Assembly: GCA_963666215.2 (NCBI GenBank)
Contig: CAXWPL010000005.1
Location: 1,376,001 to 1,440,000, forward strand
DNA: 64,000 bases
DNA from: Acidobacteriota bacterium
Lineage (GTDB): Bacteria > Acidobacteriota > UBA890 > WLXD01
Reading direction: 5' to 3'
The position numbers were made by a program, and so were the translations under genes. Below are positions 8,865 to 55,146 of the stretch, one piece after another. Under the pieces are notes generated by a model. The model was not told the origin of the DNA. It saw nothing but the letters and a program-made list of their open reading frames with translations, and ran no database searches. The first letter of the stretch is position 1, and every line of letters begins with the position of its first letter.

Positions 8865-9124
8865 GGGTAGGAAATCGCTTTTCTGAGCATGAGGAGCATG
8901 AGGGTTTTCGGAGGCCTGGGCGAGAGCTGGAGGTCCTGGGGGTGACTTCTCGGCGGCTCGACAGCAGGATTAGAGTGCGCGGGCCTGGCGGCAGGTGGGT
9001 CGCGAGAGTGCTTGGAGGCGTGCGCGGCAGCGGGGCCCCCAGGGAGTCCCCGGAGGGGAGCCAGAGGAGTCGAGGGTCCCCCGGGAGCGTCAGGCGCTCT
9101 TTGTGTCGGCAGGGATGGGTGTCT
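8865..9124 (-). mobile_element. IS91-family oriIS/3' end, copy 1
   Basis: GGGTAGGAAATCGCTTTTCTGAGCATGAGG... repeated six times in the window; preceded by GGAC. Confidence 0.8.
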
Positions 9125-9400
9125 TCATATGAGCTTGCTCGATTCCGAGGGCGTGCCGGTCGCCTACGATGTGGATGCGCCCTACGGGCTCAGCCGCACC
9201 GGCGGTAGCTCCGCCGCCGGTATCCTGCGCCATGCTTCCGCCCTGTGCGCCTTGACGGCGCCGAGCGTTGTCTCCTACCTACGCCTCGAGCCCCACCGCT
9301 GGAGCTCGGCATGGAGCAACCTGGGCTGGCGCGACCGTGAGGCGTTGGTGCGGATCTGTCCCTTGAACGAGATCGCGGGCAAAGGGCTCTCCGATCAGTT
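9125..9400 (+). pseudogene. glutamine synthetase-family internal fragment
   Basis: HMSLLD...GILRHASALCALTAPSVVSYLRLEPHRWS...DREALVRIC. Confidence 0.75.
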
Positions 9401-9942
9401 GCGTAGCGGCTCCGGCCACCAGATTTCCGTGATCGACCACAGCGGCCGTGTGCAGCACCATCTCCACGATTTGGAGCGTGGTCCCGATCAAGGCGTATCG
9501 GGTCCATCGGCGTGTGCGGTCTGGGAGTGACGGGGTGGCCCGAAGGGCCACGAGGCCGGCGAAGAAGGCCACGAAACCCACCAGCATCAACGAATGCGAG
9601 CGCACCTAGGCAGGATGCCCCAGCATCTCCTCCAGGGTGCCGTCGGGATGCTGCGGTCCCCCGACCAGCAGGAGCACGGCCGCAAGGACAAAAGCTGGAC
9701 GCCAGAGCGCTACGCCGCTCATGCGTCAACTCCAGTGGCGCTGATCTCGTAGTGGCCGAGCCGTGTGCCGACGCCAAGCGACACTGACCCTCCTTGGATG
9801 GGTGACTACGCCTGGGATTATAGGTCGCAGCCGAAGGAGCCGCGCATGTCAGTGAGGATCGTGTGCAGTGATATGACCGAAGGTGACAACCCGCTGGAGC
9901 GGGAAGGGAAGAAAAGTAGAATGATCCCCTGCGAGTTGGCTG

Positions 9943-10455
9943 ATGCTGCGGTGGATCGACGTCAGGGAGTCCAACGTCACGGTTCACCTCTCCGGGTCGG
10001 GGGCTCCAGGTGCGCCGGCCGGCCACGTGATCAAAGCCCCGGTCGCAGAGGGGTCAGTCGAGGACACCGATACGCCGCACCTGGCGCTCGTGATCGATGT
10101 CGGCCAGCTTCGCGTCGTCGATCCAGGGCGGTCGAGCGACGAACGCCAGAAGGTGCGGGGGCAGCTACTCGGGCCCGAGGGGCTCGACGCGGAGCGTTTT
10201 CCTCGGATTACCTACCACTCGCTAACGATCGACCGAGTCGAGGCCGGCGTCTGGCTCGTGCAGGGCGAGCTGGAGATGCACGGGCGGTTCCTGCCGCTGA
10301 ACGTACGCGCCGTGCGCCTCGGAGATCGCTTCACGGGGACCACGACAGTGTTGCCGAGCGACTTCGGGATACCACCCATGCGCGCCGCCGGGACCTCGAG
10401 GATTGTCGGTAGCAATGTGCGGGTCGACTTCGACATCGTTCTGGAAGCGCCCTGA
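9943..10455 (+). CDS. YceI-like protein (start uncertain)
   Basis: LDAERFPRITY, VQGELEMHG and SDFGIPP motifs. Confidence 0.7.
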   Translation: MLRWIDVRESNVTVHLSGSGAPGAPAGHVIKAPVAEGSVEDTDTPHLALVIDVGQLRVVDPGRSSDERQKVRGQLLGPEGLDAERFPRITYHSLTIDRVEAGVWLVQGELEMHGRFLPLNVRAVRLGDRFTGTTTVLPSDFGIPPMRAAGTSRIVGSNVRVDFDIVLEAP

Positions 10456-10541
10456 GTCTTGAGACGCTTGGGCGGTGGCGCCCTTGATGTACCAAGAGCG
10501 GCCTCGGTCGTTGTCAGCGCGACTGTTAATGGAACGCGGAG

Positions 10542-12170: not shown

Positions 12171-14163
12171 GAGGGCAATGTCAGAGGGGGCGTTGGGGCC
12201 GTCCGGAGAGAACGGCGCGCACGGTGCTATCGCAACGGCTGAGCGCGGCGGGGGAGGGCAAACACGAACAGATTGCTGGCGCGGCTGGTGCGGAGCTCGG
12301 GAGTCATGAGGGCGTTGGTCAGTCTGCCCGGGCCGGTGCTGACGGCTACGTACTGGCGTCCGTCGACAGCGTAGGTGATTGGAAAGCCCATCACCGGGGA
12401 TCCGAGATTGATCTCCCACAACACATCGCCGGTCTCCTGGTCGAAGGCTCTGAACCGCCCGCCCTGGTCGCCGCCGAAGAGGAGTCCGCCGCCGGTGCTG
12501 AGCAGCGAGAAGGTCGCGGCCCGCGTTTCGTAGATCCACTTCGTCTCGCCGGTCTCTACCGAGATCGCACGCACGGTTCCGAGCTGGTCGGTGCCCGGTG
12601 CCAGTTGGTGATCGACAGCGAGCGAGTAGAACGGGCTAGATTGAACCATGGACATCGCCCGTTCGCTGCGGAGATTGTCGGTCGCCAACATGACCGCACA
12701 GGCCTGGCGAAGCGGGAAATACATGGTCTTGGTCAGTGGGCTGTAGGTGCCGGTCTCCCAATCCTTGCCGCCCGCCCAGGTCGGGCAGATCAACGCCTCC
12801 TGCTCCATTTCGGTGAAGATGACCTCCAGATTCTCGGTCACCTTGCCGGTGGCGGGGTCGATGTCGCTGATTACGTTTTGCGCGATGGTCGGCGTGGCCC
12901 AGAGAAACTCTCCGGTCTCGCGGTCGAGGGTGTAGACCAGGCCGGTCTTGCCCGGGATTCCGGTCACGACCTTGCGCACCTCTCCGGGCTGAAGTCGCGG
13001 GTTGATCCAGCGGACGCTGTCGGGGTCGGGGCTGACGACGGTGTCGAGGAGGATGCGCTCGAAGACGTGGTCGAGATCCCAGTGATCGTTGAGGTGCTGG
13101 TAGTACCAGCTGATTTCGCCGGTGTCGACCGCGAGCGCGAGGGTCGAGTTGTGGTAGAGGTGGGTTTTGTCGGTGCCGCCGAGCATGAACTTCGGCGCCG
13201 GCGAGGTGACCCCGGTGCCGATATAGACCAGCTCGAGCTCGGGGTCGTAGCTCGGCGGCATCCAGGTGCCTACATGGCGTCGCCTCTCCTGGGGCACGTC
13301 GCCCCAGGTCTCGTCGCCGGGTTCTCCCTGGGCGGGTATCGTGCGCCGCCGCCACACCTCTTCGCCGGTGTGTGCGTCGTGGGCCAGGATGACGCAGGCA
13401 TCGGGGCCACCGCTGGGTCGGCAACTTCGTCCAGAGATGAGCTTGCCGTCGGCGACGATGGGGCCCGCGCTGTGATGGGCCGGATTAACCTTGTAGTCGA
13501 GGATCTTGGTCTCCCAGGCGAGCTCACCGGTCGTTGCATCGAGCGCGTAGGCGTAGAGGTCGGCACTGGTGTTGAGGATGAATCGGCCGTAGATGGCAAT
13601 GTTGCGGGACTTACGGGCGAGAGGGCCGCCGTAGCCCCAGACATCATCCGGCAAGTCTCGTTTGTACTCCCACAACAAGTCCCCTGTCGCGGCGGAGAGC
13701 GCCTGAATTGTGTCTTCTGTGTTGGGGACATAGAGGACGCCTTCGTAGGCCAGCGGCGTGAGCTCGGCGGTTCCCGGAGCGAGGGCGCGAGTCCAGACCA
13801 TGCGGATCTCGTCCACGTTCTCTCGGGTGACCTGGTCGAGCGGGCTGTAGCCCCAGCTGTCGAGGGTGCGGCGATAGTTGATCCAGTCCTCCGGCGCCGG
13901 ATTCGCGAGCATGGCGTCGGTGACCGGAGTGAGCTCTGTCGACAGCGTGGCGGCGGTCGTCGTGTCCTGGCCGAGGGCGACCGAGACCACTAGACAGGCA
14001 GCGATCCCACTCAGCACGAGTCTCGCGCGGCAAGCAGAATTCATCGCTCGATTCATCGTTGGCCCCTCCTGGGTACTGCGAGCTGGCGTGAGGTGACGCT
14101 GTCGCAGCGCGCGAGGGATCATGGTCTGCCGGTATGGCTGTCGTCAAGAGGAGTCCAGCCGGC
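12171..14163. repeat. ~2-kb direct repeat, copy 1 (copy 2 at 44724-46716)
   Basis: Near-identical nucleotide sequence at an offset of 32553. Confidence 0.95.
12227..14056 (-). CDS. PQQ-dependent dehydrogenase (alcohol dehydrogenase-like beta-propeller), copy 1
   Basis: RBS AGGAGG before MNRAMNS; signal peptide; YSPLDQV, TPLAYEG, WDLD, CPTWAGGKDW and PITYAVDGRQYV motifs. Confidence 0.9.
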   Translation of the reverse strand: MNRAMNSACRARLVLSGIAACLVVSVALGQDTTTAATLSTELTPVTDAMLANPAPEDWINYRRTLDSWGYSPLDQVTRENVDEIRMVWTRALAPGTAELTPLAYEGVLYVPNTEDTIQALSAATGDLLWEYKRDLPDDVWGYGGPLARKSRNIAIYGRFILNTSADLYAYALDATTGELAWETKILDYKVNPAHHSAGPIVADGKLISGRSCRPSGGPDACVILAHDAHTGEEVWRRRTIPAQGEPGDETWGDVPQERRRHVGTWMPPSYDPELELVYIGTGVTSPAPKFMLGGTDKTHLYHNSTLALAVDTGEISWYYQHLNDHWDLDHVFERILLDTVVSPDPDSVRWINPRLQPGEVRKVVTGIPGKTGLVYTLDRETGEFLWATPTIAQNVISDIDPATGKVTENLEVIFTEMEQEALICPTWAGGKDWETGTYSPLTKTMYFPLRQACAVMLATDNLRSERAMSMVQSSPFYSLAVDHQLAPGTDQLGTVRAISVETGETKWIYETRAATFSLLSTGGGLLFGGDQGGRFRAFDQETGDVLWEINLGSPVMGFPITYAVDGRQYVAVSTGPGRLTNALMTPELRTSRASNLFVFALPRRAQPLR

Positions 14164-14339
14164 CGCAAACACGCCGCCGGGACCACGCACCCGGACCGCC
14201 GTTCCGGCGGGATGATGCCGCCCTCCTGAAGCAGGCCTAGCTCTCCCGCGGTCGCGAAGCCCTTAGCTCACTCCACCCCGGAAACTGCGCTCGCAGCCAA
14301 CGGGATGCGCTTTCTCGCAGCCATCAACAGGAAGGCCGA

Positions 14340-14869: not shown

Positions 14870-14994
14870 GGGGAGGAAATCGCTTTTCTGAGCATGAGGA
14901 GCATGAGGGTTTTCGGAGGCCTGGGCGAGAGCTGGAGGTCCTGGGGGTCACTTCTCGGCGGCTCGACAGCAGGATCAGAGTGCGCGGGCCTGGC
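14870..14994 (-). mobile_element. IS91-family oriIS/3' end, copy 2 (short, GGGGAGG variant)
   Basis: Same repeat; preceded by CGAC. Confidence 0.8.
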
Positions 14995-15271
14995 CGATCA
15001 GGTGGCGATCATGGTCATCGCCGTTGTCACAGCGGTCTTGGTCATGTTAGTTTCGGCAAAGCCCATCGGAGATTTCGTCGAGCGACACCCGACCTTGAAG
15101 ATGCTCGCTCTGAGCTTTTTGCTCTTGATCGGTACGACGCTGGTGGCGGACGGCCTCGGGTTTCACTTTCCGAAGGGCTACGTCTATTTCGCGATGGCGT
15201 TCTCGGTGTTCGTGGAGATGCTCAATATGAGGTTGCGCAAGGTGTCTGCCCCCGAAGTCGCAGGGGGCTAA
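14987..15271 (+). pseudogene. TerC-family membrane protein C-terminal fragment
   Basis: FVERHPTLKMLALSFLLLIG...PKGYVYFAMAFSVFVEMLN. Confidence 0.85.
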
Positions 15272-16323: not shown

Positions 16324-16498
16324 ACCAGCGTTTCCAAAGTTCGTGCTGCATAGGTCGAGCTCATTCTGTTCGCTGGCCAGGCGCGGCGACGCAGGCATAT
16401 TGGGCAATATGTCGAGGAGCGCGGGGGCGCCTAGCCAACGCCGCCAGCGGACAGAAGGGGCCGAGATATGTGCGCGAACTTTGGAAACGCTGGTCTAG
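16320..16498. mobile_element. CTAG-flanked hairpin MITE-like element A
   Basis: 24-bp perfect IR CTAGACCAGCGTTTCCAAAGTTCG, further inner stems, and a core shared with element B. Confidence 0.75.
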
Positions 16499-16531
16499 AT
16501 TCAGGCGTGGTACTACCACGCCTGAATCTAG
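16495..16531. repeat. perfect palindrome (18-bp arms, 1-nt centre) bounded by CTAG
   Basis: CTAGATTCAGGCGTGGTA-C-TACCACGCCTGAATCTAG. Confidence 0.9.
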
Positions 16532-16580
16532 TTTGCCGTTGGCGCCGCGGACGGCGCACTTGGGCGTTGCTTCCTATTCG

Positions 16581-17122
16581 CTGATATGGAACGACCTTTG
16601 TCAAGCACCCAACGCCCCATAGTTACCTTTTCGGGCAGAGCCGAATGACCGTGTTCCGTCGTGAGGTCGTGCACTCTTCGTTCGCGAATCCGGGAAAGGA
16701 CTCCCTGTCGCATAGCGAAAGCGCGAATCCTCGGATCGTGCCTCCCGGGGTCCACGCCCTCCACCCACTCGAGTCGTTGTTGTTTACCTGCCTTCTTGCC
16801 CTTCGCGAGTCGCCTCGAGAGGTCGGTTCGGGGTCCAGGCGGCTGGCGTAGCCATTCCGAAGGGACTTGGCCTGGAGGCCGAAGCGCCCTCTCGACAGAA
16901 TTGAGCATGGCAAGAAGCGGGCGCATGTTAGTTCGTGCCGGTGCCTTCCTGCAGTCGCGGGTAGAGGTAAAGAACATCCCACAGGAAGCCGACGAGCTCG
17001 CGAGCCATCGCAACGACAGCCTTGGGCGCCGGCTTGCTGGAGCCCAGTACGAAATGGAGATAGCGACGATGCAACCGAAGCTGCGCCTTGTCTGCCACAG
17101 TACAGATCTCCTGGGGTTGGCC
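16581..17122 (-). mobile_element. IS110-family remnant: transposase C-terminus plus ~350-nt 3' non-coding region and right end
   Basis: KAQLRLHRRY...KPAPKAVVAMARELVGFLW is an IS110 C-terminal motif; the end reads TTGACAAAGGTCGTTCCATATCAG. Confidence 0.7.
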
Positions 17123-17317
17123 CTGTTCGAGCAGGCCGCAGTCCAAGTACCGGTACACCACCCTTGCGACCACGCTGCGCAGGTAGCCGAAGGTCGGCTC
17201 GAAACGATCTTCGTAGACCTGGAGGAAGCGCTCAAAGTGGTGTGTCAAGGCGCGGTACGCCACGCTCCGCTCCGGCCGCCGCCGGCGATAGACCTGGCTG
17301 TGAGCCGCCTCTGCCAT
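17120..17317 (-). pseudogene. IS91-family transposase N-terminal fragment
   Basis: YRRRRPERSVAYRALTHHFERF...YRYLDCGLLEQG, the region preceding the Zn-binding domain; fused in frame to the IS110 tail. Confidence 0.75.
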
Positions 17318-17499
17318 TGCCTCCCGTCGAAGACAAGAGACGGAAAGCGGCGCTCAGATCTGGCACCGATCGCACCTAATGCTCTTCCGCCCCGAGCTCG
17401 GCTTCCGCTCGAACCTCGCTGGGGAACGACCGTGGGCGGCAGCTTTCCCCCGGCTGCTGCAGCTGAGTTCAACGCTGCGTGCCTTGATACGATCGGTCC

Positions 17500-17706
17500 A
17501 TGAGGGTCTCAGAAACACCCAGCGTCATTCATTCGGATCCTGAGATCCTCGGTGGCGCACCCGTTTTCCGCGGTACGCGGGTCCCGGTCAAGAATCTCTT
17601 CGACTACCTGGAAGCTGGCAATCCACTCGAGAGGTTCCTAGATCACTTCCCAACGGTTTCGCGCGAGCAGGCGTTGGCGGCTCTAGAAGAGGCAGCTGAA
17701 GGCCTC
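17500..17706 (+). pseudogene. DUF433 antitoxin, 3' end replaced
   Basis: IHSDPEILGGAPVFRGTRVPVKNLFDYLEAG...FPTVSREQA. Confidence 0.85.
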
Positions 17707-17789
17707 GGAAGAGATCCGAGCCAGCTACCCGACGGTGAGCAAGGAGGCTCTTCAGGCCGTTATGGGCTTCGCGTCCCCGCACTGTTAGG

Positions 17790-17935
17790 GTATGGGCTTT
17801 GAAGACGCCGTCCTCGCAGAACAAACCGACGATGCTTTCGGCGTCGCCGTCGACCACCGCGTGACAGTATCTGGCGGTGAGCTCTCGGATTTCGTCTTTG
17901 TCTTCGAGTCTTGTCAGTCGGTCTTCGGGTTTCAC
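17790..17935 (-). pseudogene. SnoaL/NTF2-like N-terminal fragment
   Basis: RLEDKDEIRELTARYCHAVVDGD...LFCEDG. Confidence 0.65.
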
Positions 17936-33282: not shown

Positions 33283-33615
33283 CACCACACCGCCATCTCG
33301 GTGAAAGACATGGAGAGGTCACTGGCCTTCTACCGGAATTTGCTGGGCATGGAGGTGCTCTCGGACCAGAGCTGGGAGAGCAGTCCAGAGAACAACCCGA
33401 AACCGGAAAAGATTCTGGATCTCGAGAACCCCGCTGCACGACAGGCCATGCTGAGGTGTGGAAACGCTCATATTGAGCTGTTCGAGTTCAGCAAGCCGGA
33501 ACCCGCCCCCATGGCAGTGGACCGGTCCGTGCATGATCATGGGTACACGCACTTCAGCCTGGATGTGAAGGACGTGGATGCGGAATACGAGAGGCTGCTG
33601 GAAGCCGGGGTGGAC

Positions 33616-34082
33616 GGGTAGGAAATCGCTTTTCTGAGCATGAGGAGCATGAGGGTTTTCGGAGGCCTGGGCGAGAGCTGGAGGTCCTGGGGGTCACTTC
33701 TCGGCGGCTCGACAGCAGGATTAGAGTGCGCGGGCCTGGCGGCAGGTGGGTCGCGAGAGTGCTTGGGGGCGTGCGCGGCAGCGGGGCCCCCAGGAGTCCC
33801 CGGAGGGGGGCCAGAGGAGTCGAGGGTCCCCCGGGAGCGTCAGGCGCTCTTTGTGTCGGCAGGGATGGGTGTCTCAGACAGGCTCATAGACCAGCTCGGG
33901 GGCTGGCGGTGGTCTCGGCGACCTGTGACGTGTCACCGGAGTGGGGAGCGCCGGGCAGCGTTTGAGTAGAATCCCCAGTACCTCACGAGCTGCTGCGAGG
34001 GGTCGGGAATGTGCTGTGCGGCCAGGAGAGCATGTTGTCCACCGTGTCAGCGTCGATCCGTCCCTTCTCGAGCAGCATCCTG
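33616..34082 (-). mobile_element. IS91-family oriIS/3' end, copy 3, with two internal transposase pieces
   Basis: Preceded by TGGAC. 33951-34016 matches 47312-47377 and 34013-34082 matches 47591-47660, linking the repeat to the HUH transposase. Confidence 0.85.
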
Positions 34083-34572
34083 TCGCCATCACCGAAGCAG
34101 AGGCGGCCTCGGCCAATGCCGCCGTCGAGCGGGCCCGCGCCGCCCTGCGGCGGGCGGAGCTCGATCTCGAGTACACCCGGATCCTGGCCCTGTCGACGGC
34201 GTAGTCGCCCGCAAGAGCGTCGAGTCCGGGGAGATTCTGCACCCGGGCCAGGCGGTGCTCGCGGTGGTCGAGATCGACAACGTGTGGGCGGTCGCCAACT
34301 TCAAAGAGACTCAGCTCGAGCACATGCGGCGGGGCCAGCCGGCCAAGCTCAAGGTCGACGCCTACCCCGGCCACGGCTTCCGCGGCCACGTCGAGTCGAT
34401 CGGCGCCGCCACCAGCTCGAGCTTCACTCTGCTCCCGCCGGAGAATGCTCCAGGCAACTTCGTCAAGGTGGTGCAGAGAGTGCCGGTCGAGATCATTCTC
34501 GACGACCCTCCGGATCCCCAGCGACCGCTGCGCGCCGGGATGTCAGTGGTCGTCACCGTCTCGACCCGCTAG
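34083..34572 (+). pseudogene. HlyD/EmrA membrane fusion protein C-terminal fragment
   Basis: VWAVANFKETQL...FTLLPPENAPGNFVKVVQRVPV...LRAGMSV. Confidence 0.85.
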
Positions 34573-36427: not shown

Positions 36428-36649
36428 TGGCGTCGCGACTGGGCATGCGCTTGAACCAGAATTGCTGATATGACATATTTGGGTTTCTTCATAGCCGCGA
36501 CAACGCGCTAGCAGGAGGTTGGTGGAGTCGACATGACGGCAGCCAGGCTCGCCGAACGACGGGTGACCTTGGGCCTGTGTCTCCTTCTCTGCACGCAGGG
36601 TACGTCCTTCGCCGGGACCTTCACGGCCGCAACCGAGGCCCACATCGAC

Positions 36650-36998
36650 GGGTAGGAAATCGCTTTTCTGAGCATGAGGAGCATGAGGGTTTTCGGAGGC
36701 CTGGGCGAGAGCTGGAGGTCCTGGGGGTCACTTCTCGGCGGCTCGACAGCAGGATTAGAGTGCGCGGGCCTGGCGGCAGGTGGGTTGCGAGAGTGCTTGG
36801 GGGCGTGCGCGGCAGCGGGGCCTCCAGGAGTCCCCGGAGGGGGGGCCAGAGGAGTCGAGGGTCCCCCGGGAGCGTCAGGCGCTCTTTGTGTCGGCAGGGA
36901 TGGGTGTCTCAGACAGGCTCATAGACCAGCTCGGGGGCTGGCGGTGAGTGAGCGAGGGGCTCCGGCTCTTGGGGTTCCGCCTGGATTCCCGCCAACAA
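36650..36998 (-). mobile_element. IS91-family oriIS/3' end, copy 4
   Basis: Preceded by CGAC; includes the transposase tail LAGIQAEPQEPEPLAHSPPAPELVYEPV*. Confidence 0.85.
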
Positions 36999-37002
36999 GG
37001 TC

Positions 37003-37156
37003 CTCGGCGCACCCGTTTTCCGCGGTACGCGGGTCCCGGTCAAGAATCTCTTCGACTACCTGGAAGCTGGCAATCCACTCGAGAGGTTCCTAGATCACTT
37101 CCCAACGGTTTCGCGCGAGCAGGCGTTGGCGGCTTCTAGAAGAGGCAGCTGAAGGC
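37003..37156 (+). repeat. internal copy of the DUF433 gene at 17500
   Basis: Near-identical to ~17548-17703. Confidence 0.85.
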
Positions 37157-39316: not shown

Positions 39317-39421
39317 CCGAGTTGGATGCCCCGCCGTGGGGCACACTACAACGTATCCAGAGGGCTCACCACACCCAGGGGCCTAGCGCAGCAGGCGAGC
39401 CCAGCTGATGCTCCGCCGCCG

Positions 39422-39542
39422 GGTTCCTAGATCACTTCCCAACGGTTTCGCGCGAGCAGGCGTTGGCGGCTCTAGCAGAGGCAGCTGAAGGCCTTATCCG
39501 CAATTGCGACTGCTTCTCGATGAATCGGTTCCTCGGCAGCCT
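39422..39542 (+). pseudogene. 3' end of DUF433 copy plus start of its DUF5615 PIN-like toxin
   Basis: Matches 17633-17704, then MRLLLDESVPR. Confidence 0.7.
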
Positions 39543-39601
39543 TGCGCGAGCTGGATGCTGATCGTGGAATCGGATCCGAGAGTCCGCGGTAGGCTTAGGA
39601 C

Positions 39602-39844
39602 ATGGAAGCTGCGTCTGATACCTGGCAGGACTTCATTGCTGTCGATCCAGCGATATGCCACGGACGGGCCTGCATACGGGGTACCCGCGTCATGGTGTCT
39701 GTGATCCTAGACAACTTGGCTGCGGGACTATCGGCGGAAGAGATCCGAGCCAGCTACCCGACGGTGAGCAAGCAGGCTCTTCAGGCCGTTATGGGCTATG
39801 CGGCCGACCTGGCACGGGAGCGCATCGTTGACATCTCGTCGTAG
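39602..39844 (+). CDS. DUF433 antitoxin
   Basis: IAVDPAICHGRACIRGTRVMVSVILDNLAAG...SYP. Confidence 0.9.
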   Translation: MEAASDTWQDFIAVDPAICHGRACIRGTRVMVSVILDNLAAGLSAEEIRASYPTVSKQALQAVMGYAADLARERIVDISS

Positions 39845-39853
39845 AGGCCCGTG

Positions 39854-40000
39854 GTGAGGCTCAAGGTCGACGAGAACCTCCCCGTCGAGATTGCTCAGAG
39901 TCTCGGTGAATCCGGCTATGACGCTCAGACGGTCCCGGACGAGGGCGGCGCAGAGGACGAAACCATCAGCGCCCGCTGCTTGGCTGAAGATCGCGCCCGC
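39854..40000 (+). pseudogene. DUF5615 PIN-like toxin, truncated
   Basis: MRLKVDENLPVEIA...GYDAQTV...GAEDETI. Confidence 0.75.
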
Positions 40001-42654: not shown

Positions 42655-43015
42655 GGGTAGGAAATCGCTTTTCTGAGCATGAGGAGCATGAGGGTTTTCG
42701 GAGGCCTGGGCGAGAGCTGGAGGTCCTGGGGGTCACTTCTCGGCGGCTCGACAGCAGGATTCGAGTGCGCGGGCCTGGCGGCAGGTGGGTCGCGAGAGTG
42801 CTTGGGGGGCGTGCGCGGCAGCGGGGCCCCCCGGGAGTCCCCGGAGGGGGGCCAGAGGAGTCGAGGGTCCCCCGGGAGCGTCAGGCGCTCTTTGTGTCGG
42901 CAGGGATGGGTGTCTCAGACAGGCTCATAGACCAGCTCGGGGGCTGGCGGTGAGTGAGCGAGGGGCTCCGGCTCTTGGGGTTCCGCCTGGATTCCCGCCA
43001 ACAACCTGCGGATGG
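42655..43015 (-). mobile_element. IS91-family oriIS/3' end, copy 5
   Basis: Preceded by CAAC; transposase tail IRRLLAG...ELVYEPV*. Confidence 0.85.
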
Positions 43016-43021
43016 AAGAGA

Positions 43022-43121
43022 GCTTGGGGACGTCGACCTCGCTGAGGCGCGCAAGCGCCTCAGCCACCAGGAATCGCTCGTTGTAGACGGGGACGATGAC
43101 GCTGAGCGTCGCGCTGTCCAC
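43022..43121 (-). pseudogene. glycosyltransferase family 2 N-terminal fragment
   Basis: LSVIVPVYNE motif. Confidence 0.7.
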
Positions 43122-47054: not shown

Positions 47055-47305
47055 TAACCTCGTCGAGGCAGTCCTCGCCGACGCCGGCCACAGCAACACA
47101 GACGCACCGCGGGCTCTCGAACTAGCTGCCGACGGGTTGGCCCAGGCGGTTCTGGTTCGGGACAGCGCATATCAGCGCCTGGTCGAAGCAGGCGGCCCGA
47201 TGACCTCCAGCGGGCGCACTCGCCGCGTGTTCCAAGTCTGGCTTCAGGCCGCGGATAGGGTCGACAAGCACGTACGCCTCGTCGGCTTGAAGCGGGTGCC
47301 GCGGA
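47055..47305 (+). pseudogene. possible phage small-terminase-like/hypothetical fragment
   Basis: Helical protein ending ...DRVDKHVRLVGLKRVPR, reminiscent of the small genes that precede this terminase type; weak call. Confidence 0.3.
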
Positions 47306-47311
47306 GCTGCC

Positions 47312-47865
47312 CCGGGCAGCGTTTGAGTAGAATCCCCAGTACCTCACGAGCTGCTGCGAGGGGTCGGGAATGTGCTGGGTGAGACGGGCGATGAAGTCCA
47401 GGACATCCCAGCGGGCCACAGTGCCGTAGGGGCTGGCCGTGCGCCGCGGCCGCGCCGAGTAGACGGCCTCTCCGCTCTCAGCATCCCACTCCAGACGGGC
47501 GAGGACGAGGGGGCAACGAATCATGGTTCGGCCGAGTCGTACCGCGCCCTGGCGGTCCTCAGCCCGCACCGAGCCGTGGGTCCACAAGCCGCTGTGCGGC
47601 CAGGAGAGCATGTTGTTCACCGTGTCAGCGTCGATCCGTCCCTTCTCGAGCAGCATCCTGAGCACCTCGGCTCGGAAGAGGCGCTCCACCTTCTCAGCGT
47701 CGAAGTAGAGAAGGTGTCGAAAGGTCCCGTCAGGGAGCCAGGCACCATCGGCCATCAGGACGTGGATATGTGGGTGAAATCGCAACAGCTCCCCGGACGT
47801 CTGGATGAAGCCGTCGGATCTCCCGATGAGCTTGGCCAGATGCGCACGATCGCGAAAGAAGTGCT
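47312..47865 (-). pseudogene. IS91-family (HUH rolling-circle) transposase central fragment
   Basis: IQTSGELLRFHPHIHVLMADG (HUH), WPHSG and LDFIARLTQHIPDP...VRYWGFYSN. Confidence 0.88.
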
Positions 47866-48018
47866 CCCTCGTCTTCGGGGGATCTCCCCAGCCTAGGGTC
47901 TTCTGCTGGGACCTCAGAGAGAGGATGTCCCTTCTGGCAGTAGCCCGGCGCCCTACGAGTGGGCGCCTCAGTTGCGGAGAAAGGGTGTAGACTGTGACGC
48001 AACCCGGGAGGATCCACG

Positions 48019-49959
48019 ATGTCGATGCCCTCTGTTCGCGCGGCAGCGCGCCTCCGCTGGCTGCTGCCGGGGCTCGTCCTCTTCGTCGCTGCGGCCTACG
48101 CAGAGGACGACTGGCTCTCGCACTTCGGCCAAGGCGCCGGTCCCCCGAACTGGGTCGGTGACCTGACGCCGGTTACGGCGGCGGACTGGAGTTACGCCAA
48201 GGCGGCTCATCTTCTTGAGCGCGCCGGCTTCGGCGGCACTCCGCAGGAGATCGAGCCGCTGGCTGCGATGTCTCCCGAACAGGCGGTGGCCACCCTCGTC
48301 GACTACGATTCGATCGATGCGGAGGCACTTCTCCCCTTCGAGGAGTCAGGCGTCTTCGGGCCGGAGATGCTCGCCGATCTCGCCGACGGGCTGAACTTCC
48401 GCGGGGCGCTCGCGCGCGCTCGGCAGCGCGGCTCTGTCTATGGTGTCGAGCCGCGCGAGGGCGGAGTTCGGCCCTACCAACCAATCGTCGACGTCAGCTA
48501 CTACCGCAAGTACGCCCCCCGTCACGAATGGCTGCGGGTCGCGAACTGGTGGGCCGAGCGCATGATGCTCACGCCACGTCCGCTGGAAGAGAAGATGACC
48601 CTCTTCTGGCACGGGCACTTCGCCACCGAGCAGGAGAAGGTAATGGACTACCGCCTCATGCTGGATCAGAACACCATGCTGCGCGAACACGCGACGGGGA
48701 GCTTCCGCGATCTCCTAATCGGTGCCTCCAAAGACCCGGCGATGCTGATCTACCTCGACAACCGCAAGAACGTGGTCGGCCACGCCAACGAGAACTATGC
48801 GCGCGAGATCATGGAGCTCTTCGCGCTGGGTGTGGGTAACTACAGTGAAGACGACATCAAAGAGGCGGCGCGGGCCTTCACCGGGTGGCGCAACGAGGGA
48901 CGGCGCTTCGTCGACGATCGCCAGCTCCACGACGCGGGCGAAAAAACCATTCTCGGGCGCACGGGGAACTTCGACGGCGAGGACGTGGTCGACATCCTAC
49001 TCGGGCAGGAGGTTTGCGCTCGCTTCATCGCGGGCAAGATCTACCGCTTCCTGGTGCGCGAAGATCTCGGTGCAGACCTCGAAGAGAGCTTGGCGGCGAT
49101 CTTGCGCGACGCTGACTATCAGATCGCGCCGCTGTTGCGTGCGATCTTTCTCAGTCGGGATTTCTACGCGCCGCCCGCCTTCGCCACTCGGGTCAAAGGG
49201 CCGGTGGGGTTCTTGGTCTCGACCTACCGCAAGCTCGGGCTCGAACGGATGCCGGGGTCTCTCTATTTCCCGCTGGTGTCGACGCAGCTCGGCCAGGCGC
49301 TCGGCGATCCTCCAAACGTCGCCGGATGGGCGGGCGGTCGCTCCTGGATCAATCCGTCGACCCTCATCGAGCGCGGCAATGTGATCGGCTACCTCCTCTT
49401 CCCAGAACGCCAAGGTGAGGCCTATCGCTACGGACCCTTCGAAGCCCGGTACCAGCGTTACCAGTTCGCGCCGATTGGAGCCTACGAGCGTGATCGAGTC
49501 GCCGCAATGGGCGCTGCAGCCCCCTCTTCTGAGGGAGCGATGATGGCGGAAGGACCGTCGGGGGCGATGCCGGAGGGTGTTATGGCTACCGACATGAAGA
49601 AAGCTCCCTCGGCGACGATGATCAACGAGACACCGCGCCACGACGTGCCCCTGGGTGTTTACAACGGCATGAACCGGGCCTTTCGCACCATCCTGCCGGT
49701 CGATCAATCGCCTGCCGACTTCGATCTCGCCTCGATGCTGAAAGAGGCGGACGTGACGACGACCGCGGATGCCGTCGGCTATTTGAGCCTGCGCTTTCTA
49801 CGCCTCCCGCTCGACGCCTCTGATCGTCGAGCTCTGGAAGCTTTTCTGCGCGATCGCACCGGCGATGAGAGCCTCGACTTCGCCGCCCCGTCTCTGGAGC
49901 GCGATCTACGCGAGCTGCTCCACCTCATCCTGTCGACGCCCGAGTACCAGCTCGGCTGA
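48019..49959 (+). CDS. DUF1800 domain protein
   Basis: HLLERAGFG, EKMTLFWHGHFAT, PAMLIYLDN, NENYAREIMELF, PPNVAGW and PEYQL motifs. Confidence 0.9.
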   Translation: MSMPSVRAAARLRWLLPGLVLFVAAAYAEDDWLSHFGQGAGPPNWVGDLTPVTAADWSYAKAAHLLERAGFGGTPQEIEPLAAMSPEQAVATLVDYDSIDAEALLPFEESGVFGPEMLADLADGLNFRGALARARQRGSVYGVEPREGGVRPYQPIVDVSYYRKYAPRHEWLRVANWWAERMMLTPRPLEEKMTLFWHGHFATEQEKVMDYRLMLDQNTMLREHATGSFRDLLIGASKDPAMLIYLDNRKNVVGHANENYAREIMELFALGVGNYSEDDIKEAARAFTGWRNEGRRFVDDRQLHDAGEKTILGRTGNFDGEDVVDILLGQEVCARFIAGKIYRFLVREDLGADLEESLAAILRDADYQIAPLLRAIFLSRDFYAPPAFATRVKGPVGFLVSTYRKLGLERMPGSLYFPLVSTQLGQALGDPPNVAGWAGGRSWINPSTLIERGNVIGYLLFPERQGEAYRYGPFEARYQRYQFAPIGAYERDRVAAMGAAAPSSEGAMMAEGPSGAMPEGVMATDMKKAPSATMINETPRHDVPLGVYNGMNRAFRTILPVDQSPADFDLASMLKEADVTTTADAVGYLSLRFLRLPLDASDRRALEAFLRDRTGDESLDFAAPSLERDLRELLHLILSTPEYQLG

Positions 49960-49969
49960 GGAGCGAGAG

Positions 49970-51244
49970 ATGAAGACGAACGAATGCCCCCACTGTACCT
50001 CGACCGCAGATGATGCGGGATGGACACGCCGTGACCTCATCGGACGCGGCCTCAAGACCCTCGGTGTGGGAGCGGGGCTACCGCTTTTTCTGCGCGAGAC
50101 GTCGCTCGCCATGGCGCTCAACGAGGTCGTGGGCACCGACCCGACGCACCCGGAGCGCATTCTGGTCGTGCTGGAGCTCTCGGGTGGGAACGACGGGCTC
50201 AACACCGTCGTACCCTACACCGATGACGAGTACTACAAGGCGCGGCCGACGATCGCGGTCGCGCCTGGAGATGTGCTCAAGCTCGACGATCGCTTCGGCT
50301 TCCATCCCAATCTTCTGGGTTGGGAGCGCCTCTTCAAGGATGGGCAGATGGCGGTTGTGCACGGCTGCTCCTATCCGAACCCGAACCGATCTCACTTCGT
50401 GTCGATGGAGTTCTGGCACACCGGCGTCCCGCACGGTGCCGAGCCCCAGGGGTGGCTAGGCCGCTTCGCCGATCGCTACCACCCCGACCCAGAGAAGGCC
50501 TACATCGTCAACATCGCCAAGGAGCAGACCAGGGCCGTTGCCAGCGGCCGACACGCCCCGGTGGTCTTCACCGACCCGGATCGCTTCGTACGACAGGGGA
50601 GCGAAGAACAGAAGATGATCTTCAAGGAGCTCGAGCGCGAGAGAGAGGCCGGCGCCAATCCGTCGCTCGACTTCGTGCGCGGCATCGCCACCACCGCCGG
50701 AGAGAGCTCGGAGTTCATCCGCACCGCCTGCGCGGAGTACCGCTCCCAGGTCGACTACGGCTACGGAGAGGTCGGCGTCGACATGAAGCGCATCAGTGCC
50801 ATGATCGCGGCCGAGGCGAAGACCCGCATCTACTACGCCAGCCTTTCCGGATTCGACACCCACGTCGCACAGGCTGGCGCCCACGGCGGGCTCTTCAACC
50901 GCGTGGGCGATGCCGTCTACGGCTTCATGCAGGACATGGAGCGCATCGGCCGCGCCGACGACGTGTCGGTGCTGCTGTTCACCGAGTTCGGTCGCCGTGT
51001 GAAGGAGAACGCCAGTCGTGGCACCGATCACGGCGTGGCCTCACCGATGTTCATCGTCGGCAAGGGTCTGAGTGGCGGCTTCTACGGCGAGCACCCCTGC
51101 CTCACCGACCTCGATGAGGGCGACCTCAAGATGACCACAGACTTCCGGTCGGTCTACGCCACCATGATGAAGGAGTGGATGGCGTACGACGATACGAAGT
51201 CGGTGCTCAGGGGGGATTTCCCCACTCTGGAGATCTTCTCCTAG
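49970..51244 (+). CDS. DUF1501 domain protein (partner of DUF1800)
   Basis: TRRDLI Tat-like motif; LSGGNDGLNTVVP, NRSHF, GFDTH and EFGRRVKENASRGTDHG. Confidence 0.9.
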   Translation: MKTNECPHCTSTADDAGWTRRDLIGRGLKTLGVGAGLPLFLRETSLAMALNEVVGTDPTHPERILVVLELSGGNDGLNTVVPYTDDEYYKARPTIAVAPGDVLKLDDRFGFHPNLLGWERLFKDGQMAVVHGCSYPNPNRSHFVSMEFWHTGVPHGAEPQGWLGRFADRYHPDPEKAYIVNIAKEQTRAVASGRHAPVVFTDPDRFVRQGSEEQKMIFKELEREREAGANPSLDFVRGIATTAGESSEFIRTACAEYRSQVDYGYGEVGVDMKRISAMIAAEAKTRIYYASLSGFDTHVAQAGAHGGLFNRVGDAVYGFMQDMERIGRADDVSVLLFTEFGRRVKENASRGTDHGVASPMFIVGKGLSGGFYGEHPCLTDLDEGDLKMTTDFRSVYATMMKEWMAYDDTKSVLRGDFPTLEIFS

Positions 51245-51344
51245 CCGCTCTCCCCCTGTAGGCTCAGAAGAATCGGGAATCAATAGAGGTAGAGAGTCCT
51301 CACTACGGGCGACGAAAATCGTCCAAGCTCAACGCGTTCACGTC

Positions 51345-51730
51345 GTTCACGATCTTCGCGAGCTCTGGACCGCCGGCATACCAGCTCGACACGCCTGGCG
51401 CATTGCTGAATTGTGTGGACGCAACGCCTGTCTGCCTCACGCCTGTATGCTCGCAGTTCAGCAAGAGTGCCGCATTCTCGAACACTTCTGGATGTTGCGC
51501 CAGCCATGTGCCACTTCGTGATCCGTTGTTATGGTGGCCGCTGGTGCCGAGAAAGGTGATCGTCCGGGGTCTCTGTTCCCGCGGCACCCGAGCGAAGAAG
51601 TCAGCCAAGCCGATCGCCGTCGCCATACCGGTTCCGTTGTCGTTGGCGGCTTCGAACCAGCCATCTCGATGGGCAACGACAAAGATCGTTTCGTCCGTCA
51701 TGCCAGGCAGGGTGGCCCTCCTCCAGGCCT
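51345..51730 (-). pseudogene. M28 peptidase internal fragment
   Basis: VVAHRDGWFEAANDNGTG...FLGTSGHH. Confidence 0.7.
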
Positions 51731-51913
51731 AGGGAGAAGGTCGGAACCCGGCTCCCAACCGGGTAGAACTGCGTGCGGAGATTGCCTGGCGCCGGCTTCG
51801 ATGCCTACATGCGGCACAAGCGGGCGGAGATCGAGATCATGAAGGATCTCGATCGCGACGATCGCTGTGCCCGTTACGCGGAGGTCTACTAGGCGGTCCG
51901 CTGCGACCTTCCG

Positions 51914-53005
51914 CTATCGCCCCGCCGCGCCCGTGGCCTCGGCCTCTAGGAAGCGGGCCCCACGGAGAGTGTTTCCCATCGAGTAGTTGCCCTCGTGGCA
52001 AGCGAACTCGTACATCTTGTCGGTGGTGGCCGGCCAGGTGTACTCACCGCTGTAAGGCGTTTCCCAGTCACCGCTCTCGACGGTGAACTGGTAGAGCAGA
52101 GTGTCCTCGTCGGTGCGAGTGAAGCGCTCGACCACGTGCTGATCGTGCGGGGGAGAGGGCTCGCCGAAGAGGGTCATCTGCAGCCAGGTCTCTTCGAGGA
52201 AGTTGGTGGTGTCGACCACCAGCGTGTCGCCCTCCCACCAGCCGATCGAGTCGCCGCTTCGCGAGCGAATCTCCGGTGGGGCGTGCTCGGGCTTGGCCTC
52301 GGCCATGCCCAAGCGAATCACTCGTGCCTCGTGCATCCACTCCACCAGGATCATCAGGTGGCTCTCGGTCTGCACGATGGTCTTCACATTGTTGTAGTTC
52401 TTGGGCAGCGCCGGAATCGTCGCCTCCAGCGAGAAGATGCATCGATCGGCAATCGACAGTACCTCGGGCCCGTCGTAGGGTCCGACTTCGCGGTCGCGCC
52501 ACCACGCGACAGCTGTGTTCTTCTTGGAGAAGCGGATCTGCTCCTCCGCCAGATCGCGCCGGTGATAGAGGCCCTTCCGACGCTCTCGCCCCCTCTCGGT
52601 GAGGGGAGGAAAGCGCCCATCGGGCGGATCGGTGAGGAGAGAGGTGCGGTACTTGCCGTCGACCGCAACCGCCTCGGTGCCGCCGTCATGGTAGAAGTCG
52701 TTGTAGCCGCCGAGTCTGCCGGTGACCGGCGGAGCTTGGCGGTTCGGGTCGCTGGGTCGTGCTCGCTCGGCCGTCCGGGTGGCTGCGCTCACCCTGATCT
52801 CTTCGGCCTCGGCCGCGGTGAGGAAAAGGCGCTCTCCGAGCTCGGGACTTCTCTGCATCCGTGTCAGCGTGCTGATGTCGTAGTTCCCGGAGAGATCCGG
52901 CTTGCCGTCGGCGGTCCGCGGAATGTCGCGCTCGGATGCGGCTCCGACCGAGCTCGCTACCACCACGATGAGGGAGGCGATGAAACAAACTACTCTGTAG
53001 CTCAT
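51914..53005 (-). CDS. conserved secreted hypothetical protein (IPRT-PDLSG...EFACHEGN family)
   Basis: Signal peptide; intact paralog of 5503-6595. Confidence 0.85.
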   Translation of the reverse strand: MSYRVVCFIASLIVVVASSVGAASERDIPRTADGKPDLSGNYDISTLTRMQRSPELGERLFLTAAEAEEIRVSAATRTAERARPSDPNRQAPPVTGRLGGYNDFYHDGGTEAVAVDGKYRTSLLTDPPDGRFPPLTERGRERRKGLYHRRDLAEEQIRFSKKNTAVAWWRDREVGPYDGPEVLSIADRCIFSLEATIPALPKNYNNVKTIVQTESHLMILVEWMHEARVIRLGMAEAKPEHAPPEIRSRSGDSIGWWEGDTLVVDTTNFLEETWLQMTLFGEPSPPHDQHVVERFTRTDEDTLLYQFTVESGDWETPYSGEYTWPATTDKMYEFACHEGNYSMGNTLRGARFLEAEATGAAGR

Positions 53006-53209
53006 GATCGTTCTTCAGTATATACCCGCCGCCGGTGACTCGCGATCAGAAGATCGCGGGTGGGAATTGCCGCGGGGGCGTCGAGGCGCGTAGAGTGGTT
53101 GTGATGATCTGGTTCGAGGTTCGCCAACGCCAGTCGAGTCACTTTCGAAGTAGTCGCATGATTCCTCTTCTCCCCATCAAGGATTCGTCAAGGCGCTCCA
53201 GCATACATC

Positions 53210-54667
53210 TCACCCGGACCGTGCGCGAATCTCTTCGAGCTGCCGCCGAGTCTTTTCGTACCGCTGGCGGTTGATGCGGTACTGAGCGTAGAAGCAGGCG
53301 GCAATGACGCCCGGAAAGATCGAGAGAGGCGACTCGATCAAGCCCAGCCAGTAGATGGTGTCGGCATCGACCGCGCCCGGCTGCGCGTTTTTCGGAAAGC
53401 CGATGAAGGTCAGCGATAGAGCGGCGATCCCCTGACCGAGCGAGTTATCGAGCTTGGCGAAGAAGGTCCGCGCGGCATAGAGCGTGCCCTCCTGTCGATG
53501 ACCGATGCGAACCTCGTTCTCGTCCGCGATGTCCGCCAACGCCGACATGACGCTGATGTGCAGAATGCTGCCGGAGCCGGACGAAAGGGCCTGGAATCCG
53601 GCGACCGCCCACATCAGCCAAGGCGAGCCGTTCTCCGGAAACGTGCCCATCAATCGGAGGACCACCGGCATTGCCGGGAAGACCGATAGTCCGAGCGCGG
53701 TGAGAACGATGGTACCCCGCTTGTCGAAGCGGGTGTGCAGACGCGCCGCGAACACGAACCCGGTGACATAGCCGATGAACGATCCGGTGAAAAGCAAGGT
53801 GCCGATGTCCTCCGACCGCAGCTCCCAGTAGAAGATGTTCATGTAGTTGGTGAGCGCCAGGCGCAGGCCGAACATCAGCGACAGGGCGACGACGGCGATC
53901 ATCAGCATCCGGTAGTTGCGGTTCGACAAGGCGGAAGCGACGTCGCGACCGAATGCGCGAATCGAGAACCCCTCCAGATCTTCGGGTGCCTGCGGCAAAT
54001 TCGGAATACGGTCTCTGGTGAACCACGCGGAGCTGAACAGCACGATCAGGACGAAGAGAGCCATCACCATCGAGAAGCGCGGATAGGCGTCCCGGTTCAA
54101 CAGCCCATTGGTGGCCACCGCCACCGAAGCGAAGAAGAGGACCGTGTTGAGCTTGAACAACCCCGCACCGCCCAACCAGTAGAAGAGGTTGTTGTAGCTC
54201 ATGATGCGGGAGCGTTCGATGTAGCCGCTCGACAGCTCGGCGCCCATCGCCAGGTGAGGCACGTGGTACACGGTCATGAACGTCCGCAGGCTGATGGACC
54301 AGATGAGGAACCACCCGAAAAGCTGGTTTGGCGTCAGGTCGTCCGGCGGGTTGAAGACGCAGAAGAAGCTGAGCGCGATGGGTATCGGCGAGATCAACAT
54401 GAAGGGATGACGCCGCCCCCATCGTTTGGAGCGATAACGATCCGAGAACGAGCCGAACAGAGGATCCGAGATGGCGTCGGTCAGCAGGGCGATCGTAGGC
54501 ACCAGACCCGCCAATAGCACGTCCAATCCGAGCACCTGGTTGTAGAAGAGCAGGCCGAGAACCGACAGCGAGTAGAGCGACATGTTCTCGGCCGCGGCAC
54601 CAATGCCGAAAGCCAGCCGAGTGCGGGTCGGCACGGTCCTTCCCGGGACCGGTTCGCCCCTCGTCAT
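53210..54667 (-). CDS. MFS/GPH (MelB-like) transporter
   Basis: DAISDPLFGSFSD, WGRRHPF, PHLAMGAEL and ADIADE...RQEG motifs; multiple TM helices. Confidence 0.88.
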   Translation of the reverse strand: MTRGEPVPGRTVPTRTRLAFGIGAAAENMSLYSLSVLGLLFYNQVLGLDVLLAGLVPTIALLTDAISDPLFGSFSDRYRSKRWGRRHPFMLISPIPIALSFFCVFNPPDDLTPNQLFGWFLIWSISLRTFMTVYHVPHLAMGAELSSGYIERSRIMSYNNLFYWLGGAGLFKLNTVLFFASVAVATNGLLNRDAYPRFSMVMALFVLIVLFSSAWFTRDRIPNLPQAPEDLEGFSIRAFGRDVASALSNRNYRMLMIAVVALSLMFGLRLALTNYMNIFYWELRSEDIGTLLFTGSFIGYVTGFVFAARLHTRFDKRGTIVLTALGLSVFPAMPVVLRLMGTFPENGSPWLMWAVAGFQALSSGSGSILHISVMSALADIADENEVRIGHRQEGTLYAARTFFAKLDNSLGQGIAALSLTFIGFPKNAQPGAVDADTIYWLGLIESPLSIFPGVIAACFYAQYRINRQRYEKTRRQLEEIRARSG

Positions 54668-54935
54668 CGTTCTCCCATCGCTGATCCGCAGTCTATCTCT
54701 ACCCCCGACACTGGTGTTGTCGGCGGCTTCGCACTACCATGAGGCCTGCTTCTTGGACCTGTGAACCGGCTGCAACACACTCCCGGACTAGTCCCGTAGA
54801 GGAGCTCTATGCACGCCGTCGGCACCTCGGCGTGGGTGAGGCACCTGACCAAACGCTACGGCCGCTCGGACGGTCCTTGGGAAAGCGCGTCGGTCTATTG
54901 GGTGATGATCTCTACCGCCGTTTGGTGCTGGGGGA

Positions 54936-55146
54936 CGGGTAGGAAATCGCTTTTCTGAGCATGAGGAGCATGAGGGTTTTCGGAGGCCTGGGCGAGAGCT
55001 GGAGGTCCTGGGGGTCACTTCTCGGCGGCTCGACAGCAGGATTAGAGTGCGCGGGCCTGGCGGCAGGTGGTCGCGAGAGTAGTTGGGAGCGTGCGCGGCA
55101 GCGGGCCCCCCCGGGAGTCCCCGGAGGGGGGCCAGAGGAGTCGAGG
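54936..55146 (-). mobile_element. IS91-family oriIS/3' end, copy 6
   Basis: Preceded by GGAC; same repeat. Confidence 0.8.

Follow-up and report, generated by a model that had tools for sequence, protein, structure and literature searches.

ISCR elements are said, after Toleman et al. (2006), to encode an IS91-like transposase, and their truncated copies reportedly keep one end beside unrelated genes while the terminal end, terIS, is lost. In IS91 and IS1294, the origin end (oriIS) lies 3' of the transposase gene tnpA, the bottom strand is moved, the element adjoins a target tetranucleotide with T at position 2, and failure of termination mobilises DNA beyond terIS (PMC13181058). For IS801, ori-end miniatures of 229, 360 and 679 nucleotides (nt) have been obtained experimentally from premature termination, and its genomic fragments were mostly put down to reorganisation by Bardaji et al. 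(PMC3189936); eight ori801 ends are reported from one 131-kb plasmid of Pseudomonas syringae (PMC6354349). Here we describe a 64,000-nt stretch, the window, of an acidobacterial metagenome-assembled genome (MAG; G000:C5:1376001-1440000; genome G000 of 4.65 Mb in 5 contigs, 65% GC), in which six co-oriented copies (c1 to c6) of one end of an IS91-family insertion sequence (IS) are each followed by different DNA. We consider it probable, at roughly 60%, that these copies are decayed end-pieces of a single IS91-family IS, a state already known from plant-pathogen plasmids, rather than a gene-collecting machine. The closest precedent appears to be IS801/CRR1 and the ori801 fragments on the P. syringae plasmids.

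The repeat was located with a 14-mer (at most one mismatch) that occurs six times in the window, always on the + strand, at 8865, 14870, 33616, 36650, 42655 and 54937; shuffled sequences gave a chance expectation of 0.01, and six copies were reached in none of 100 shuffles. The first-pass annotation of this DNA had six copies starting at the same base, which the motif search and the alignment bear out; five of its positions stand, the sixth being 54937 and not 54936, and its GGGGAGG variant in copy 2 was recovered at 14870. When aligned, the copies show a sharp common left edge, preceded by a shared AC alone in otherwise unrelated left flanks, and are 97-99% identical up to each copy's own break point. 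The differing lengths at which they had been said to break off were confirmed and measured at about 126-380 nt in the six window copies, counted against the longest copy with the shared (G)AC, the 3 nt ahead of the motif, included. Three further ends, c7 and c8 among them, lie outside the window at window-equivalent 66936, 116149 and 120714, the last being 31 nt long. All nine ends of the genome thus share the + strand and fall within 112 kb of contig C5, and they keep 31-583 nt of one element; the other four contigs carry no further repeat ends. The start-to-start spacing is exactly 6005 nt both between c1 and c2 (8862/14867) and between c4 and c5 (36647/42652), and these two units have nothing in common except the stubs, at either the DNA or the translated level.

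On the minus strand, the repeat comprises the 3' end of a gene and a further ~270 nt, with the shared oriIS-type end lying ~270 nt beyond the stop codon of the transposase gene (tnp). The gene ends in ...EPLAHSPPAPELVYEPV before its stop codon, which is the transposase tail previously read from the longer copies. The largest piece of the gene in the window (47183..47812, minus strand; codons 168-378) contains HPHIH and YWGFYSN motifs in translation, and Pfam Y2_Tnp (PF04986) matches 46988-47785(-) at 1.3e-13. A protein search returned 108 relatives among 406 candidates, including full-length proteins of 414-450 amino acids (aa) with PF14319+PF04986. The closest full-length relative, P0004 (438 aa, 83% identity, PF14319+PF04986), ends in ...AHSPPELEIVYHTI; with 169 bits it exceeds the cut-off of 125 set for the NCBIfam model NF033538 'IS91 family transposase', and its 164 bits against the ISCR clade Ia model NF052416 fall short of the cut-off of 925. 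The window's own transposase fragment scores 55.6 bits against the IS91 family model, below the cut-off of 125 because it is only a fragment. The transposase shares no more than 40% identity with plasmid-borne relatives that carry an IS91 family annotation. A tblastn search of the genome with P0004 gave 16 high-scoring segment pairs, 15 of them on the minus strand of C5 as scattered collinear pieces, in agreement with the single strand earlier assigned to all copies. The pieces within the window comprise codons 1-66 (17120-17317), codons 168-378, codons 401/408-438 (c5, c4) and scraps in c3. Two 69-70-nt pieces in c3 match 47309-47377 and 47591-47660, so copy 3 does run into HUH transposase sequence, as had been proposed.

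No intact transposase is present in the assembly; the genome holds five partial Y2_Tnp matches and nothing more, the best of which belongs to a different element that is truncated as well. The stubs would therefore be inert here unless the enzyme were supplied in trans. A second, different IS91-family transposase remnant, a 234-aa C-terminal part with a Y2_Tnp score of 110 bits, lies outside the window on the minus strand at G000:C5:1328187-1328891. Neither orf121 nor a helicase domain was seen at the element, and no resistance genes or integron context were seen. Among 80 metagenome loci with related transposases, the oriIS motif was found downstream of tnp in one (L058). A retroelement or group II intron, which would also combine a constant 3' end with variable 5' truncation, was considered and dropped because the Rfam gathering search of the window gave no matches and the protein is a Y2 HUH transposase.

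To the left of the nine ends stand the tetranucleotides GGAC (four times), CGAC (twice), CAAC, AGAC and ACAC, that is 5'-GTCC, GTCG, GTTG, GTCT and GTGT on the tnp strand. The same end was found in a second genome, G001, a 6.78-Mb MAG of a Thermoanaerobaculia bacterium, where four copies with 93-96% identity are dispersed in both orientations and are all internally deleted; neither the element nor close synteny was found in 25 other genomes of the class. The three intact ends in G001 abut GTCT, GTAC and GTCG on the tnp strand, and 5'-GTNN adjoins all nine ends here and all three there (GTCC x4, GTCG x3, GTCT x2, GTTG, GTGT, GTAC). The targets given for the IS91 family are GTTC, CTTG and GTCC, always with T second, with GTAC and GTCG as minor IS91 targets (PMC13181058), and those given for IS801 are GAAC, GGAC, CAAG and CGAC (PMC3189936). 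On its location 3' of tnp, the co-orientation of the copies and these family-typical tetranucleotides, the shared end is most probably the oriIS end of an IS91-family (Y2 HUH) element, the assignment to the family being secure, and this part of the first-pass annotation is upheld. No motif beyond the tetranucleotide was found in the left flanks of c1, c4 and c5, and the oriIS end, folded on both strands, gave a hairpin no better than shuffled sequences (z +1.0, +0.2).

Gathering the genome copies, as had been recommended for defining the full element, gave the nine ends and an element of roughly 1.76 kb, with a terIS boundary taken from two copies. At this putative ter end, at window-equivalent 118541, the G000 copy and G001 copy L003 match to the same base and then diverge into different flanks (n=2 copies). 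No direct repeat flanks the pair formed by c8 and 118541 or L003, and in neither case do the two flanks both match an empty site; for L003, no homologue spanning the junction was found. At two window copies, empty sites could be identified in G001. The c3 copy lies after GGAC in a glyoxalase gene (33301..33615, +) that is intact in G001 (168 aa) and whose remainder is absent from G000. Similarly, c4 lies after CGAC at about codon 14 of a DUF1800-type gene, intact in G001, of which the first ~14 codons remain (36608..36649, +). The gene order in G001 is HlyD-DUF3604-DUF1800-DUF1501, and G000 keeps the last 128 aa of HlyD, the DUF3604 gene and ~14 DUF1800 codons. The comparison indicates that c3 and c4 truly inserted into genes that the second MAG retains intact.

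The DNA to the right differs from stub to stub. Stub c1 (8865..9124, +; left flank GGAC) keeps 263 nt from 8862 and ends before the tnp stop codon; it is followed by an internal glutamine-synthetase fragment (9129..9365, +; 79 aa, Gln-synt_C profile 154-231 of 344) that is broken on both sides, the right break being without IS DNA. Stub c2 (14870..15005, +; left flank CGAC) keeps about 126-139 nt and meets the C-terminal fragment of a TerC gene (15002..15271, +; profile 129-177 of 178, the last ~50 residues), after which comes an intact 2-hydroxyacid dehydrogenase gene (15295-16323). Stub c3 and its debris (33616..34082, +) consist of 299 nt and three collinear transposase scraps joined by deletions, followed by the C-terminal 128 aa of an HlyD-family protein (34186..34572, +; 84% identical to residues 276-403 of 404 in G001) and an intact DUF3604 gene (34616-36427). 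Stub c4 (36650..37005, +) keeps 352 nt plus 7 nt of tnp codon ~252; a DUF433 gene fragment (37006..37156, +; equal to 17554-17703), the C-terminal fragment of a short-chain dehydrogenase gene (37420-37692) and an intact sulfatase gene follow. Stub c5 (42655..43032, +; left flank CAAC) keeps 380 nt including tnp codons 401-438, ends in ...GGGGAC(G), and sits where two convergent genes meet, in a spacer of 150 nt between their stops. Stub c6 (54937..55146, +; left flank GGAC) keeps 213 nt between the start of an MFS gene (54634) and, after a further 37 nt, the stop (55184) of a 1230-aa carboxylase gene. The spacers of c5, c6 and c8 are of ordinary size and lie between complete genes, those of c6 and c8 being plausible intergenic spacers without a ter-like tetranucleotide. 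Most of the cargo named by the first-pass annotation was thus recovered (glutamine synthetase, TerC, HlyD, DUF433 and the carboxylase flank); its glycosyltransferase (GT2) after copy 5 was not, as no Pfam family matched 42918-43121(-).

A ter-like tetranucleotide was found at the right break of one of the nine copies (c5, ...GGGGAC then G), the other eight being without one, and at none of the three right ends of shared cargo segments. On the right-hand side, most fragments are the C-terminal remains of genes and precede intact genes, as would be expected if deletions had run rightward from the IS. For seven junctions with both parents known, the microhomology is 10, 1, 4, 0, 0 (about 7 with a 3-nt shift), 0 and 7 nt; the c3 scraps account for the 10, 1 and 4 nt, and the 4-10 nt seen at three of the seven would be typical of illegitimate deletion. 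Each unit of stub and patchwork is single-copy in the genome, and parent copies of the fragments with at least 80% identity were not found in it. Truncation is not confined to the neighbourhood of the stubs, an AMP-binding fragment (26380-27159) lying away from any of them; the window carries three other IS types, and from 1.27 Mb to its end the GC content of C5 is 61-64%, down from 65.5%, and the previously steady negative GC skew ceases. For these reasons, the stubs sit in a generally decaying, plastic tail of C5. The cumulative skew minimum of the contig is at ~1.26 Mb, and the tail from about 1.27 Mb might represent a large island, a landmark of replication or unlike DNA joined together.

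Some defective derivatives are found more than once. The c4 copy and G001 copy L002 have an identical junction, from IS position 352 to codon ~252, and c4 has a second break 7 nt after this common junction. Three copies (17442, 68166 and 89211) all lack the terminal ~50 nt on the ter side and are fused to DNA leading into a DUF433-DUF5615 pair, each with different further deletions. In the window, this lineage is represented by an IS 5' piece (17120..17442, minus strand; tnp codons 1-66 and 125 nt upstream, ter side minus the last ~50 nt) fused to a DUF433 gene (17443..17802, +) with a 240-nt deletion relative to the 39xxx copy, a fusion also present at 68166 and 89211. Part of the DUF433-DUF5615 segment recurs at 39422, there joined to a tnp scrap; the joined piece (39382..39945, +) contains a 47-nt scrap, a 7-nt microhomology and a segment in common with window-equivalent 68357-68878. 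The DUF433 and truncated DUF5615 pair (39602-40012, also 17500-17802) has the look of a toxin-antitoxin system and is fused to the ter-less IS lineage. For an IS91-type element lacking ter, read-through into the flanking DNA is expected (PMC13181058; CRR1 in PMC6354349), and the DUF433-DUF5615 fusion is therefore the one plausible case of cargo mobilisation. It is plausible that the pair was mobilised with the ter-less copy, segmental duplication being the alternative, and there is some evidence from these shared structures for non-autonomous spread of defective derivatives.

We propose that a rolling-circle IS of the IS91 family, ~1.76 kb long and encoding on the minus strand a transposase of ~435 aa with Zn-finger and Y2 HUH domains, may have entered a 112-kb stretch of the low-GC, IS-rich and pseudogene-rich C5 tail at least nine times. 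Each entry would have been beside a 5'-GTNN target and in one orientation throughout, and every copy would since have become defective. The c5 copy, and perhaps c6 and c8, may have been born short through premature termination of rolling-circle transposition, as in the IS801 experiments. Copies c1 to c4 do not qualify as IS801-type miniatures, because their right flanks are truncated genes. These four would have been cut down by illegitimate, partly microhomology-mediated deletions starting in the first ~130-380 nt and running rightward via tnp into neighbouring DNA. The left neighbour would thereby stay intact, and the right one would be reduced to its C-terminal part. Before further decay, a few of the defective forms would also have been copied. 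The identity of the element, its shared end and targets, the junctions that could be checked, the two empty sites and the shared derivative junctions are shown by the data; we infer this order of events, the division into copies born short and copies deleted, and early template switching as a cause of the short stubs. As a guess, nicking and strand-displacement synthesis at oriIS might promote early termination or template switching, and these might in turn yield both the born-short copies and the rightward deletions.

Six runs from two studies hold the stretch, all as short-read contigs, with the organism at roughly 4-8x, and the IS repeat collapses such contigs at its borders. One rival explanation for this MAG is an assembly artefact, in which reads anchored on a single multicopy IS were merged into a chimeric consensus. 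Contigs of runs X1, X2, X3 and X5 were compared with 33201-53200, with 31 nt required on each side of a junction. Contigs of X1-X3 bridge, with 0 mismatches, the left junction of c5 (41575-42682, 31 nt inside the repeat) and its right junction (42998-44003, 35 nt), as well as, on contigs spanning 37105-39415, the right junction of the DUF433 fragment (37156|37157, 52 nt) and the junction of the sulfatase gene with the tnp scrap (39381|39382, 34 nt). An X1 and X3 contig (46459-47337), also with 0 mismatches, bridges the junction between a PQQ-dependent dehydrogenase segment and the tnp fragment (47182|47183, 155 nt). These five junctions are each bridged by at least 31 nt on both sides in two or three of the four runs, from two studies. 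The junction of the c3 debris with HlyD (34082|34083) is bridged with 30 nt, one below the threshold, and 47812|47813 with 29 nt; the c3-left, c4-left and c4-break junctions were not among the bridging pieces of the four runs. Joints matching the c7 structure outside the window occur in all four runs, and the independently assembled G001 has the same kind of truncated copies, including one identical deletion junction. The first-pass annotation had named reads clipping into a full-length transposase as the observation that would count against it, and this was not seen at the junctions covered. The zero-mismatch contigs thus largely refute a chimera at those junctions, and we regard such an artefact as very improbable. 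Two contig joints, with matching sides of 23-31 nt, are in neither assembly and may come from strain variants or other genomes: 33761->44724 (side 23) connects a 149-nt stub with the left edge of the PQQ segment, and 36333->33612 connects the 3' region of a DUF3604 gene with an oriIS start.

The first-pass annotation had suggested that the oriIS ends are non-autonomous units that collect gene pieces as Helitrons do. In such a system the stubs would gain host gene fragments by template switching or read-through, and the patchworks would be moved cargo. Helitrons share the HUH two-tyrosine rolling-circle logic and one constant end, and truncation and read-through, which make new other ends, are documented for them, as are insertions that abut one another (PMC4778049). 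All patchworks do lie on the side towards which rolling-circle displacement runs, the clustering of stub lengths at 126-380 nt is what early template switching predicts, and absence from the genome of the rest of the cut glyoxalase, HlyD and DUF1800 genes would suit an arrival as cargo, as would the glutamine-synthetase fragment with its IS-free right break. However, a collecting system would be expected to leave more than single-copy patchworks, and only the ter-less::DUF433(-DUF5615) segment, with its toxin-antitoxin-like pair, is multi-copy. No fragment has a parent gene of at least 80% identity in this genome, ter-like tetranucleotides mark one of nine stub ends and none of the three shared cargo ends, and the driving transposase is absent from the assembly. 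Fragments followed by intact, co-oriented downstream genes are instead a signature of deletion, and truncated genes also occur away from the stubs. Unlike Helitrons, the locus has no helicase domain, amplified chimeric families or parent genes. Of the earlier suggestion, the spread of derivatives and the DUF433-DUF5615 pair with its ter-less copy therefore stand in its favour, and the single-copy units, missing parents and scarce ter-like ends against it; a Helitron-like capture system is not demonstrated at this locus and seems unlikely to us. We give about the same low credence to a tandem one-ended array, in which each unit of oriIS and cargo was inserted exactly at the tetranucleotide-oriIS junction of an earlier copy, that junction being the best cleavage site for the transposase and the left tetranucleotide being the neighbouring unit's end. 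Such an array would account for the co-orientation of all nine ends and their clustering within 112 kb, GGAC, CGAC and CAAC are reported for IS801 both among the targets and at the ends of one-ended products (PMC3189936, PMC6354349), abutting insertion has its Helitron parallel, and the dispersal of the G001 copies in both orientations would make the array form specific to this region. The units would nevertheless reach 18.7 kb with ter-side IS pieces in their midst, the 5.3 kb left of c3 is syntenic with host DNA of G001 and so looks resident rather than cargo, the glyoxalase remainder was not found after the last unit, and all the internal deletions would still be required.

Several observations also weigh against decay of end-pieces as the explanation. 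Decay alone does not explain why nine of nine ends are clustered and co-oriented; the IS30-like copies of this region, by contrast, occur in either orientation. The first breaks of the G001 copies are at 315, 352 and 363 nt, and eight of the nine G000 stubs keep at most 380 nt of ~1.76 kb; with uniform and independent breaks this would have a probability of (380/1760)^8 ~ 5e-6, so the clustering is unpredicted by random deletion. Four of the seven analysed junctions have 0-1 nt of microhomology. The IS bodies hold several deletions each while adjoining host genes stay intact open reading frames, a pattern compatible both with copies that were defective from the start and with decay in place. 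The immediate left neighbour of c1, c4, c5 and the ter piece at 118xxx is in each case a DUF3604 gene, for which decay gives no reason. With the genome at 91.7% completeness, an intact copy may have escaped assembly. Finally, the junctions of c1, c2 and c6 lie outside the interval compared with contigs, and the comparison was with contigs only, the long-range order extending beyond them. Some of these observations would be met if stubs and patchworks were born in transposition, by a template switch within a few hundred nt of the nicked oriIS that yields chimeras of oriIS and foreign fragments. Such a process, a bacterial equivalent of the fragment capture by Helitrons, would explain the clustered stub lengths in two genomes, the confinement of deletions to the IS and the strict co-orientation; we hold it to be quite improbable, and continue to prefer decayed end-pieces of one IS91-family element.

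Several other repeats were observed in the region. G001 is not syntenic with the window as a whole, with genes 70-89% identical and shared IS elements 95-100% identical. An IS30-like element (HTH_38 + rve; 31340-33282) is ~100% identical to at least 13 G001 copies and absent from the orthologous G001 site. A ~180-nt repeat (16320-16498, 16528-16582) has many 96-97% copies in G001, in both orientations, and several in G000; beside it lies a 37-nt palindrome (16495-16531), which gives it the look of a miniature inverted-repeat transposable element. Four DUF3604-family paralogues, ~70-75% identical where alignable, lie at 6687-8573, 34616-36427, 40025-42589 and window-equivalent 116423-118264, the last between stub c8 and the ter-side piece 118302-118541; no common flank motif was found for the IS pieces adjoining them. 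The PQQ-dependent dehydrogenase segment is a 2-kb duplication at 99.2% (12171-14167 and 44724-46719), each copy 0.5-0.7 kb left of an IS91 piece, and the NHL-repeat genes beside the two segments are mutually inverted and 76% identical. Two paralogues resembling TonB-dependent receptors (28586-30988 and 60595-63375) are 89% identical over 2.6 kb, the former being without the N-terminal carboxypeptidase-regulatory domain of the latter.

As in IS801, the element belongs to the IS91 family and many partial copies keep the ori end, and the IS801 targets GGAC and CGAC are found here too; a trimmed-ter derivative of IS801 also undergoes one-ended transposition, with toxin-antitoxin systems nearby. 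The present element differs in being in another phylum and on a chromosomal contig rather than a plasmid, and in that no copy is intact, all are co-oriented and the stub ends are mostly without a ter-like tetranucleotide. The breakpoint pattern agrees with the conclusion of Bardaji et al. that IS801 fragments reflect reorganisation. Compared with IS91 and IS1294, mobilisation is here suggested by the shared ter-less::DUF433 fusion alone, whose ends are not at canonical tetranucleotides, and the ISCR elements differ by the score of relative P0004 against the clade Ia model and by their resistance and integron context, which was not seen here. The presence of many ori-end fragments in mosaic DNA is a state already described for IS801/ISCR-type elements, and the evidence for IS91-like transduction is called 'circumstantial' in the Helraiser paper (PMC4778049). 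At present, the result is one of annotation, with no new mechanism. It extends the IS801/ISCR picture, of ori-end fragments marking plastic, mosaic DNA, to an uncultured acidobacterial lineage and a chromosomal setting, and supplies two clean empty-site comparisons. First breaks 126-380 nt from oriIS in two genomes hint that nicking at oriIS may provoke rightward deletions or template switches, which, if confirmed, would bear on how IS91/ISCR elements reshape neighbouring genes.

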